23,896 bases of DNA from a virus, in UHGV virus genome UHGV-0115697; one strand, written 5' to 3'. Shown piece after piece: positions 53 through 21,469 of the stretch. The notes under the pieces were generated by a model that saw only the letters and a program-made list of their open reading frames with translations, was not told the DNA's origin and did not search any database. The translations under genes and the position numbers were made by a program. Position 1 is the stretch's first letter, and each line of letters opens with the position of its first letter.

Positions 53-1654
53 TCATGGATTATTATTTACGCCTCTAATACTGCCAGCAGAAAATGACAT
101 AGATGTAGAATTAGTTGCATTAAGGAAGTTATAGGTACGTCGACTGGGTGTGCTGTATTCTCCAATGCCAAGTGCATCAAAAGAAGACATAACAAAACCA
201 TTAACTTTATCAGCCCTTATAGCTGTCATGTTAGTATTCAATGCGGTTGATGCGTGAACAAAATGAGCGTTAGATATTTGCACAGATTCTACTTTACGTA
301 CTGAGTTTCCGTACAGTGCTAAAATCGGGATAGATACTCCTGAAGTATTAGTTGTCTCACCAATATAAATATTACTAAGCGCGGTATTTATATGATTTGT
401 TGAAGTATCTTGTGGCTCTAAAGCTATAGCTCCAATATCATATCCTCCATTGCAAAATATATTGCTAGCTCGATTGCCACCGGCTGATAACCTTAATGGG
501 CAGCTTCCTCCGTACACTTCCACAGTGTCTAGAACAGAGTCGCTGTACACACGTATGCCACCTCCCGTTGCACGGATTGAGATATCTGATACATCGGTAG
601 CTTCGCAATAAATATCTCGAAATCTTGCAAGTCCTTGACCGTCATAGATAAACCATGTATTGAATCTCTTGCCAGTTAACTTCTCGTAATACCACCCAGC
701 ACCGCGAGTATGCAGTATGGCGTGGTTGCACCGCCACTCACCGTCGAACTGGATGTTTTCAAACTTAATACTATCTTGCCCATCATTAGTGTCACCAGAG
801 CCAAAAATATAGTTCTGACCATCGTTCAATGGTTTTATTACTGTAGTCCCTGAGTACGCCTGGTTAGCACCTTGGCCTACAAAAGTTAGCCCTTGGGTGT
901 ATCCAGGTATAGTACAAGGTGACATTCTAAGCTCACCCTTGGGCAGGATAATGCGTCGTACACCAGCATCTATAGCTTTTAATATCGCGGGTGTTTGGTC
1001 GGCAACATGCACGCCGCCGCCGTAATTTTCAATATAGTCAGACACAGGTTCTTTTTTCCAGTTGGTATCTACTGTCGGTGTAGTGGGAACCATTGAACCT
1101 GGTGTGATTTCCCCCTTGTATGAGTAGTATTCATTATTAAATTTGAATGCCTGTAGCGCAGAGTGCAATGGTGAATTGCTACCAAAATATCCAGATGGAA
1201 TAAATGGATGCAAATCATATTGCTGTAATTCAAATAGTTTTATTGCATTATCAAGCGTAGAATCTTCATATCCAACAAGTGAGGCCCCTTCAGGACCAGA
1301 TAACTCTTTCCTTAGCTGATCAGGATCATACTTCAGCACATTAGGAAAATAGAACTGCTGTGCACCATACGCATCATAAACAGCCATAGAATGGCCTTGC
1401 ACAGTTACGAATTTGGCAATCTGTCCGTTATATACAGGGTAACCAGCGGCGTTAATGATGATTGGCTGGGATACAGGAACGTGAGAGCCGTCTTCGTTCT
1501 CCACATAAACCTGAATCTGGTTTTCAGGATTTACAGGGTCAGTGTCAATTTTACCGATATAAATTTTGCCATTGGCTACGGCTTTAAAAGAACGCGCCAT
1601 AGTGAAGAGTTGCGAAGGCATGCTTACCACAACATTTGCGGTGATATCTGACAT
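53..1654 (-). CDS. Tailspike protein (P22 gene 9 homolog): conserved head-binding N-terminus, divergent receptor-binding/depolymerase domain
   Basis: N-terminal [11 protein letters not shown]...[12 protein letters not shown]...DTDPVNP...[12 protein letters not shown]...VLKYDPDQ closely matches the remembered P22 tailspike head-binding domain; GGAG SD 7 nt upstream of ATG at 1654; the track ORF extends to an ATG at 1711 that abuts a terminator T-tract, so 1654 is preferred. Rest of protein is Asn/Thr/Ser/Gly-rich, beta-helix-like, not P22-like. Confidence 0.85.
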
Positions 1655-2945: not shown

Positions 2946-3584
2946 ATGAAAAAAATAGATATATATAGCGATACATCAGCCTATGTCATAGGCTCATTGG
3001 GGTTTTTAATTTTTTTTGTTTGGCAGTACCAGTCACTATCTCCAGGATGGCGATTTTTGGGGATGTCTTTGATATCACTTGGTGCAGGAATAGCAACGCA
3101 GGTGTTGATGTATCTCTTTAATGGATGGCTCTCAAAAAGAGTTGAGAAAAAAAGAGCTACTTCAATATGTAGAAGCCTAGCTATTCCAGAAGACTCTACA
3201 GATCAGGATGATATTGCAAAATGTTGGCGGTATATGATTGCAAGATACTCAAATGAGTTACTGGCAAACAGACTGTCCGACTTAATCGGGATCGTAGTTA
3301 CCTCTGTTGGAACAATCATCAGTATAGGGATATCAATTTGGTATGTCGGGATGATTGTCTATTTTGTTTGGAATAGAGACTTCAATGAACCTTCCCTTCT
3401 TTTTATACCTTTATTTTTCAGGGTATTAGCATTCATATGTGAGTTATTGCTCTCTTTTTTCTGCAATGTTTTGTTCAACAGATACCCAGGTGAAGCAAGA
3501 AAGTTTAATAAAAACTATGATGAGTTAAGGAGAACAGATCCTTTTCTATCAAGCAAAGAGTTCCGCGATTCCATTCGCAATTAA
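2946..3584 (+). CDS. Hypothetical 212-aa integral membrane protein (~4 predicted TM helices); candidate superinfection-exclusion-type moron; only plus-strand gene in window
   Basis: ATG at 2946 with AGGAG at 2931-2935; hydrophobic segments AYVIGSLGFLIFFVW, FLGMSLISLGAGIATQVLMYLF, LIGIVVTSVGTIISIGISIWYVGMIVYFVW, LLFIPLFFRVLAFICELLLSFFCNVLF; charged loop and tail; AT-rich; sits where P22 has sieA. Confidence 0.6.
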   Translation: MKKIDIYSDTSAYVIGSLGFLIFFVWQYQSLSPGWRFLGMSLISLGAGIATQVLMYLFNGWLSKRVEKKRATSICRSLAIPEDSTDQDDIAKCWRYMIARYSNELLANRLSDLIGIVVTSVGTIISIGISIWYVGMIVYFVWNRDFNEPSLLFIPLFFRVLAFICELLLSFFCNVLFNRYPGEARKFNKNYDELRRTDPFLSSKEFRDSIRN

Positions 3585-20731: not shown

Positions 20732-20807
20732 TGGTGCCGGTTAACGGATTTGAACCGCTACCTATTCACTTACAAGGCGACCGCTCTACCATTGGAGCTA
20801 AACCAGC
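20732..20807 (-). tRNA. tRNA-Thr (anticodon UGU)
   Basis: 76-nt minus-strand cloverleaf GCTGGTT-TA-GCTC-CAATGGTA-GAGC-G-GTCGC-CTTGTAA-GTGAA-TAGGT-AGCGG-TTCAAAT-CCGTT-AACCGGC-A-CCA: 7/7 acceptor pairs (one G-U), 4-bp D stem, T loop TTCAAAT, encoded CCA; anticodon stem has one G.A and one G-U. Confidence 0.65.
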
Positions 20808-20812
20808 ATGTT

Positions 20813-20887
20813 TGGCGGGACAGCGTGGACTCGAACCACGATAAGAAGGTTAACAGCCTTCCGTAATGACCTTTATACGACTGACCC
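20813..20887 (-). tRNA. tRNA-Asn (anticodon GUU)
   Basis: 75-nt minus-strand cloverleaf; perfect anticodon stem GAAGG/CCTTC with loop CTGTTAA; T arm CGTGG-TTCGAGT-CCACG as in E. coli tRNA-Asn; discriminator G and encoded CCA; one U.U mismatch at acceptor 4-69; 5-nt spacer to tRNA-Thr. Confidence 0.65.
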
Positions 20888-20950: not shown

Positions 20951-21469
20951 CTAAATGGCTAATTGCATGTCAAGGTTTTTAACAGCAACATGCTTAACTT
21001 TCTCAACACGTTTACGCATTTTGAAAGCATTTTGCATTGGTTGGTACAAAACAAATAATGACGCTTTCAGGATGTCGTCAATTTCATTTCTACAGGTTGC
21101 CAGTGAAGGTTTTCTCCATCCCTCGCCACCACGTCCACACATCTTGCGTGGCTTTGCAGTCGCGTGATAGTAGGATGCAATTGCTCGCTTAGATGAACCA
21201 TGAGCGTAGTAGCTGAGGAGGATGCCAAAGGCTTTCTTGTCAATGTACATGACGGAATCGACGACCTGAGAAATCAACATTCCATCGTCATCATTACACA
21301 TTGGCCTTGTCATAACTCTTCCCGGCTCTACGCTCTCCATGAACTTAACTATTACGCTGCTCATGCGCTTTTCCAGACGACCTGAATAAACCCATGCCCC
21401 CCACAGTTCAAGCCAGCCATTCAGCCAATCGTGCTGTTCTTTGGTGAGGTTTATTTCTCTTATGCTCAT
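20951..21469 (-). CDS. Q: Late-gene antiterminator Q (phage 82 / QuuD family)
   Basis: 172 aa; L.LWGAWVYS...SRPMCNDDDGMLI resembles remembered QuuD (..ERWGAWAA...SRPQCCDDDAMII); sits immediately upstream of the tRNA/lysis late leader. Confidence 0.7.
   Translation of the reverse strand: MSIREINLTKEQHDWLNGWLELWGAWVYSGRLEKRMSSVIVKFMESVEPGRVMTRPMCNDDDGMLISQVVDSVMYIDKKAFGILLSYYAHGSSKRAIASYYHATAKPRKMCGRGGEGWRKPSLATCRNEIDDILKASLFVLYQPMQNAFKMRKRVEKVKHVAVKNLDMQLAI

Follow-up and report, generated by a model that had tools for sequence, protein, structure and literature searches.

An IS3-family element interrupts a chimeric P22-type tailspike gene with a widely shared receptor cassette in an Escherichia coli prophage

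The virus genome UHGV-0115697 was analysed as one stretch of 23,896 nucleotides (the window), which represents the right-hand two thirds of a lambdoid, P22-like prophage. The gene of interest encodes a tailspike. It comes last in a late operon of the P22 type and is located downstream of the genes for the ejection proteins gp7, gp20 and gp16 and of the sieA region (Pfam, PHROG). Its open reading frame (ORF) spans 1711 to 53 on the minus strand and, counted from the ATG at 1654, gives a product of 533 amino acids (aa). The features of the locus are collected in Table 1. The explanation that best accounts for them, to which we give a probability of roughly 0.85, is that this is the tailspike gene of a P22-like prophage at argW, that it carries a receptor cassette shared with other phages, that an insertion sequence (IS) cuts it between codons 533 and 534, and that the product is most likely non-functional.

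Table 1. Features at and around the tailspike gene (window coordinates).
Feature	Coordinates	Strand	Remarks
Terminal 55 nt of a 1336-bp IS3-family (IS2-group) element	1-55	plus	100% identical to IS ends in E. coli genomes
Transposase orfB, last five codons and TAA stop	1-18	plus	
Terminal inverted repeat ending ...GATCA	19-55	plus	
TGA stop of the 533-codon ORF	53-55	minus	First three IS bases; alignment to the NCTC8623 orthologue breaks after ...AATAATAATCCA
Target sequence CGTAAATAATAATCCA, 16 bp	56-71	minus	Duplicated beyond the IS in CP056412.1; single copy in NCTC8623
Receptor-binding module, aa 114-533	56-1315	minus	Neck/linker ~114-210; predicted right-handed parallel β-helix ~234-533, cut in its last rungs
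Tailspike gene, codons 1-533 of an original 642 (5' 83%)	56-1654	minus	95% aa identity to the 642-aa orthologue P0001
Head-binding (virion-attachment) domain, aa 1-113	1316-1654	minus	Pfam PF09008, 1-113/113, E 3.3e-67
Shine-Dalgarno GGAG	1662-1665	minus	7 nt upstream of ATG 1654; read from sequence
Terminator-like hairpin GACCCAGC-TTCG-GCTGGGTT (1717-1736) and T-tract	1710-1736	minus	Overlaps the spurious ATG 1709-1711
Second hairpin and T-run, AACCCACC-TTCA-GGTGGGTT-TTTT	1787-1810	minus	Directly 3' of the P63C gene stop; read from sequence
P63C-domain gene	1817-2788	minus	PHROG 2384, function-unknown family; between sieA and tailspike
sieA	2949-3584	plus	Intact in the window
tRNA-Thr (TGT)	20732-20807	minus	Between the Q-like antiterminator gene and the lysis genes
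tRNA-Asn (GTT)	20813-20887	minus	Between the Q-like antiterminator gene and the lysis genes
Q-like antiterminator gene	20951-21469		

Start of the gene, head-binding domain and chimera boundary

A sequence-only reading of the window had placed the true start at 1654 and noted that the upstream ATG (1709-1711) abuts a terminator. Both points hold. Sf6, P22 and the E. coli orthologue P0001 (WP_367600706.1, 642 aa) share the start methionine at 1654, which is preceded by the Shine-Dalgarno motif listed in Table 1, and the upstream ATG lies in the T-tract of the hairpin.

The same reading had assigned the first ~110 residues to a head-binding domain of the P22 gp9 type, in agreement with the Pfam match and with the PDB. 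By phmmer, the N-terminus aligns without gaps to Sf6 gp14 (E 5.6e-65) and P22 gp9 (E ~1e-50); the domain is closest to Sf6 gp14, over residues 1-119. Both PDB alignments stop at residue 117-119, just past a conserved YDPDQ hinge, and P22 gp9 aligns to residues 1-117 only, with no similarity over gp9 ~125-666. Nucleotide similarity to 32 phage records (HK620, Sf6, CUS-3, epsilon34 and others) ends at ~1300-1316, codon ~113-118, as assessed by megablast, and similarity to ~1,160 E. coli genomes with P22-like tailspike genes ends by codon ~130 (window ~1266-1316). The joint of the chimera lies between YDPDQ and LRKEL.

Beyond the joint, residues 120-533 gave no sequence match to the P22, Sf6 or HK620 receptor domains (PDB phmmer, megablast), as anticipated by the earlier claim that the distal part does not resemble the P22 endorhamnosidase. 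Full-length identity to the P22 tailspike, which would contradict that claim, was looked for and is absent. These results support a modular chimera in which a P22-type head-binding domain is followed by a non-P22 receptor module with a predicted β-helix. The distal part had further been described as AT-rich, as rich in Gly, Asn, Thr and Ser, and as repetitive. The first two descriptions are accurate to a moderate degree: G+C content is 41.6% as compared to 50.2% in the other late genes, and G, S, T and N make up 10.7, 9.0, 7.6 and 7.4% of residues as compared to 8.6, 6.4, 5.7 and 5.2%. The third is not, in that a tandem-repeat search of the gene's DNA found none.

A match to PHROG 8280, whose annotation is that of a tailspike degrading colanic acid, covers aa 1-209 (window 1028-1654). 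This match continues well past the head-binding domain into the neck and suggests that the neck may be conserved, or exchanged, as a segment of its own.

Interruption of the gene by an insertion sequence

Among 5,426 complete E. coli genomes, one, NCTC8623, gave a whole-gene match (94% nucleotide identity), and the gene there has 642 codons. The window is in perfect register with the NCTC8623 gene (product WP_250185911.1) up to ...GGCGTAAATAATAATCCA, and homology ends at window position 56. Past this junction NCTC8623 reads ATAGTATTGGG... and the window reads TGATCTTGACCCGCC.... Bases 55 to 1 of the window match the terminus of an IS3-family element at 100% identity, so coordinate 53, previously taken as the end of the gene, is not its end. 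The stop codon is not native: the TGA at 53-55 consists of the three bases with which the IS begins.

The remainder of the element is situated beyond the left end of the window. Its full extent can be seen in the finished E. coli chromosome CP056412.1 (locus L004), which is identical to the window across all 1,711 bases compared. There the complete IS is followed by the 16-bp duplication and then by the remaining 109 codons, intact and in frame. In-silico removal of the IS and one target copy from this locus yields a 642-aa ORF that is identical to P0001 at 616/642 positions; the window protein itself has 95% identity to P0001 over 533/533 of its residues. The C-terminal domain (residues 534-642) is absent from the window ORF and present in the intact orthologues.

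A protein identical to the 533-aa product has the accession WP_251326772.1 and is encoded on 17 contigs from several samples. Five draft contigs were examined (L005-L009), and these terminate 27-119 nt into the IS, as is characteristic of assemblies that break at a repeat. An assembly artefact at the junction itself was considered and rejected, as the same junction occurs in all six loci examined (L004-L009) out of these 17 contigs, including the finished chromosome. The RefSeq entry is a trap for annotation: what is recorded as a complete 533-aa protein is really a truncated allele with an IS-derived stop.

The possibility that the 533-codon ORF is a complete, naturally short and functional host-range tailspike is very improbable. 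The ORF is clean, has a good start and ribosome-binding site, is annotated by NCBI as an ordinary protein under the accession above, and retains all four of the invariant residues described below, each located before position 533. However, its stop codon belongs to the IS end, and its relatives are longer. Orthologues P0001-P0003 are 630-642 aa and siphophage homologues 654-664 aa in length; together with Kuttervirus TSP4 they continue for ~110 conserved residues past position 533. P0001 represents a cluster of 74 sequences; among the listed members of this cluster, 11 of 15 are 642 aa, and the PHROG 34776 profile is matched to position 904 of 1013, stopping 109 positions short. In addition, the missing codons are intact behind the IS in CP056412.1, and the cut falls inside the modelled β-helix. 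The sequence-only reading had taken the ORF to be whole and functional and to determine host range. This view cannot be kept: the window carries an IS-interrupted allele that lacks the C-terminal 109 residues and that probably specifies no host range at present.

Relatives, predicted fold and candidate receptor of the cassette

The module was found by tblastn in 26 Kuttervirus (Ackermannviridae) records at 73-75% identity. The match falls within ORF169 of phage EP75, named TSP4/gp169 by Witte et al. (PMC8217332), to which window residues 143-533 are 74% identical. BLASTP with the intact orthologue extends the relationship to the whole cassette: P0001 residues 114-641 align to EP75 TSP4 484-1012 at 67% identity over 530 aa, including the 109 residues missing here, and the alignment starts right after the PF18668 domain of TSP4 (416-481). 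Since this alignment covers the neck, the β-helix and the C-terminal domain and begins directly after PF18668, these three parts together are taken to be the exchanged unit. PF18668 itself was not matched by Pfam in the window protein or in P0001. PHROG 34776, the EP75-type TSP4 family, matches aa 113-533 at profile positions 483-904 (E 3.5e-209). The cassette is homologous throughout in Kuttervirus TSP4 proteins (EP75 gp169, SPTD1, PhiSH19, SJ3, moki); these differ in having a ~480-aa N-terminal baseplate anchor (gp10-like XD domains, PF18668 TD1) where the window protein has PF09008, and in belonging to virulent myoviruses.

Further copies are present in other backgrounds. Siphophage homologues are 86-92% identical, have PF18668 at the N-terminus, and follow the tape-measure and distal-tail genes of ~44-kb contigs. 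Drexlerviridae phage vB_EcoS_FP has a copy with 58% identity, and a Citrobacter freundii chromosome has one with 70% identity. A scan of IMG/VR with the module returned three loci only, and a scan of one genome per species found no relatives of the module. Judged by these alignments, the cassette sits behind the head-binding domain in podoviruses and behind a baseplate-anchor region in myoviruses, and one receptor cassette circulates among podo-, myo- and siphoviruses of enterobacteria. The distal domain had been called distinct; it is a non-P22 module, but it is also widely shared among Kuttervirus TSP4, siphophages and a Drexlerviridae phage.

Searches of the PDB with the distal module, run with the one sequence and again with a profile of 33 sequences, matched only N-terminal anchor domains and no solved β-helix. 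With no sequence match in the PDB, the fold was therefore taken from prediction. An AlphaFold2 (AF2) model was built on P0001, which is 95% identical to the window protein, with a 33-sequence alignment. For most of residues 220-640 the predicted local distance difference test score lies at 86-97, although one block of 10 residues drops to 61; the first 160 residues, for which the alignment is heterogeneous, score low. The model has β-strands throughout 234-550 and then a separate β domain at ~560-640. It is a confident model of a right-handed parallel β-helix, in line with the earlier suggestion, for which a structure prediction had been proposed as the check, that the distal part is β-helix-like. 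The β-helix, whose absence would have contradicted that suggestion, is predicted with scores above 90. Foldseek with this model also recovers the Sf6 and P22 tailspikes, and alginate epimerases and polysaccharide lyases (AlgE4, K5 lyase, K1 lyase, RbmB) are among its best structural hits. A predicted fold of this type cannot separate a hydrolase from a lyase.

Four acidic residues (D219, D294, D372 and E433) do not vary even among homologues with as little as 25% identity and are candidates for a catalytic role. Near-invariant W552, F583, P618, G631 and T635 lie in the missing C-terminal part. In the model, the IS interrupts the chain at 533/534, a site inside the β-helix between strands 519-527 and 534-536, and the truncated product loses the last rung together with all of the C-terminal domain. 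No catalytic family was found in Pfam for the window protein (to E 1) or for P0001, EP75 TSP4 and two other homologues (to E 0.1), and NCBIfam gave no match to the window protein alone at E 1e-5. RTX or 'haemolysin-type calcium-binding' repeats likewise had no Pfam match in these five proteins, and the public annotation of Kuttervirus homologues under that name is unsupported.

Head-binding domain, genomic position and predicted fold all place the window tailspike in the P22-like family. It shares with P22 gp9, Sf6 gp14 and HK620 gp9 (Lederbergvirus) the head-binding domain, the position at the end of the late operon and the plan of hinge, β-helix and C-terminal domain. It differs in that its module is neither the P22 or Sf6 endorhamnosidase nor the HK620 endo-N-acetylglucosaminidase, and in that the gene is cut by an IS. 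By analogy with these systems, the head-binding domain (aa 1-113) of the intact 642-aa protein would plug the spike into the gp4/gp10 tail hub. The YDPDQ hinge is followed by an exchangeable cassette of ~530 aa, consisting of neck, predicted right-handed parallel β-helix and small C-terminal β domain, which would be shared through horizontal transfer with Kuttervirus TSP4, the ~44-kb siphophages and the Drexlerviridae phage. The intact homotrimer would bind and cleave a host surface polysaccharide, most likely an O-antigen, letting the virion reach the outer membrane. In this genome the 1336-bp IS has entered the gene at the boundary of codons 533 and 534, duplicating 16 bp of target, and the TGA at its end closes the ORF. 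The 533-aa product, without the last rung and the C-terminal domain, would most likely form no stable trimer, and the prophage would release at best non-adsorbing particles unless the IS were lost.

The P22 tailspike no longer forms trimers when its C-terminus is truncated, and the shortened product is for this reason expected to be unstable and non-functional. Domain-swapped P22-like tailspikes are textbook examples, receptor-domain exchange involving podoviruses and Ackermannviridae has been documented well, and prophage genes disrupted by an IS are common, so neither feature is surprising in itself. Having lost its last 109 codons to the IS, the window gene is probably defunct, and it is of an ordinary kind. 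An interrupted gene in a prophage that is nonetheless effectively functional, because the truncated spike works or because the IS is lost often enough, is unlikely. The late operon in the window otherwise appears intact, the allele persists on contigs from several samples (17 contigs, as noted above), and the 3' remainder in CP056412.1 is undamaged and in frame, such that the gene would be whole again after a rare deletion between the two 16-bp repeats. Set against this, the final rung is gone together with a conserved domain and its near-invariant residues, which recalls the truncations that deprive the P22 tailspike of its trimer; a further IS in sieA of CP056412.1 suggests decay; and precise excision of IS3-family elements, which transpose by copy-out/paste-in, is rare.

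A candidate receptor for the intact cassette comes from NCTC8623, the only carrier of the module among the 5,426 complete E. coli genomes by a distant blastn search. Its O-antigen cluster is of the O125 type, with wzx/wzy of the 'O125 family', gmd, fcl, gmm, manC and manB (L010 32455-50000; chromosome 1257455-1275000), and next to the spike in its prophage lie gtr-like genes for O-antigen modification. Of the 5,426 genomes, 8 carry the O125 wzy gene. Det7 TSP3 and P22 gp9, EP75 TSP1 and HK620 gp9, and CBA120 TSP1 and a Salmonella Minnesota prophage spike are pairs with shared cassettes that act on the same or closely related O-antigens, and the host of CBA120 TSP1 was identified via the S. Minnesota prophage homologue. 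These pairs resemble the present one in that a cassette is common to Kuttervirus and P22-like or prophage spikes; they differ in that their receptor is known, unlike that of the window/TSP4 pair. Because the sole carrier is an O125 strain and homologous cassette pairs share specificity, E. coli O125 is, by analogy, a reasonable receptor candidate. We propose only tentatively, and at less than even odds, that the cassette is an endoglycosidase for O125 or a closely related O-antigen, which would then also be the receptor of TSP4 of the EP75/SPTD1/PhiSH19 type. If this is true, host panels without O125 would explain the absence of TSP4 activity. An argument from frequency (8 of 5,426 genomes are O125, thus p = 0.0015) was rejected, as the hypothesis came from that same genome. 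A literature search for an O125-specific tailspike found nothing relevant. O125 offers a testable candidate for the target of EP75 and SPTD1 TSP4, a question raised in two papers (PMC8217332, PMC9965104), and the answer matters for host-range engineering of Kuttervirus diagnostic and biocontrol phages.

It is doubtful, though less so than a functional prophage, that the cassette is something other than an O-antigen hydrolase, that is, directed at a capsule or exopolysaccharide, lyase- or epimerase-like, or binding without cleavage. The structural matches to AlgE4, K5 lyase, K1 lyase and RbmB would fit such an activity, as would the lack of a Pfam glycoside-hydrolase match, the inactivity of EP75 TSP4 on the O-antigen panels tried (PMC8217332) and the match through aa 209 to the PHROG of a colanic-acid-degrading tailspike.

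Several points weigh against the interpretation as a whole, in which the window gene is a disabled copy of an O-antigen-directed spike. The window itself contains only 55 nt of the IS, and the full insertion is seen in CP056412.1, identical over 1711 bp. We infer loss of function from the known assembly of the P22 tailspike. The O125 link comes from a single lysogen, NCTC8623, and was framed after that genome had been seen; the nearest chromosomal relatives of the window's lineage among the genomes compared, ECONIH5 and ABWA45, are not among the eight O125 genomes. Purified EP75 TSP4 produced no halo on any strain tested (PMC8217332), SPTD1 TSP4 is dispensable on all known hosts and listed with 'unknown specificity' (PMC9965104), and a non-functional cassette is one possibility stated for Kuttervirus TSP4 (PMC8217332, PMC9965104).

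Prophage setting and the IS element

The prophage genes in the window are on the minus strand, except for sieA, which is in the opposite orientation. In order, they start with NinB, an HNH gene, RusA, the Q-like antiterminator, two tRNAs, endolysin and Rz. The small and large terminase, portal, scaffold, coat, gp4, gp10, gp26-like and gp14 (DUF2824) genes come next, followed by gp7, gp20 and gp16 and then by sieA, the P63C-domain gene and the tailspike. The layout of the tailspike region is the same in L001, L004 and L005. In CP056412.1 the identical region adjoins integrase, yfdC and mlaA. The NCTC8623 prophage (L001) has the same neighbours, with a tRNA-Arg (argW) annotated between intS and yfdC. 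As part of the explanation favoured above, and with the confidence given to it, the window tailspike is assigned to a Lederbergvirus-type E. coli prophage integrated at argW. The chromosomal flank of CP056412.1 is 100% identical to that of E. coli ECONIH5 and ABWA45.

P22 carries the mnt/arc/ant immI region at the position of the P63C gene. NCTC8623, like the window, has the P63C gene upstream of its orthologue, in the same argW setting, plus an Arc-family gene. It differs from the window in that its tailspike gene is intact, with 109 more residues, and in having Arc and gtr-like genes, which are absent next to the window-type spike. The second hairpin in Table 1 has four T after its stem; the terminator scan requires five and so did not list it.

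A second, different IS3-family element is located inside sieA of CP056412.1 (L004 7412-8532), a gene that is uninterrupted in the window. The prophage is therefore collecting IS insertions in this lineage, which suggests IS-mediated decay.

The IS end at the tailspike junction is found at 100% identity in many E. coli genomes, in up to 26 places per genome. Full copies (L004 11600-12935, L003 2501-3836, L011-L014 1501-2836) give an element of 1336 bp with imperfect TG...CA inverted repeats, overlapping orfA/orfB with a programmed frameshift, and a DDE (rve) transposase. The best NCBIfam matches of orfA/orfB are IS2 TnpA/TnpB, below cut-offs, and an IS3 model above its cut-off. The length, the frameshifted orfA/orfB and the ends resembling the inverted repeats of IS2 are all IS2-like, whereas the scores under the IS2 subfamily cut-offs and the size of the target duplications are not. 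Target duplications are 3-5 bp for the IS3 family and 5 bp for IS2. The IS described here departs from that feature of its family, with direct repeats of 15-16 bp flanking it in 6/6 copies examined. The repeats are real target duplications, because the uninterrupted NCTC8623 target has a single copy. A literature search for IS3-family elements with 15-16 bp duplications found nothing relevant.

As compared to the other late genes, the tailspike module favours the codons AAT (Asn) and ACA/ACT (Thr); the AAT:AAC ratio is 21:10 in the module and 73:105 in those genes. The two tRNA genes of the window are for Asn and Thr (Table 1).

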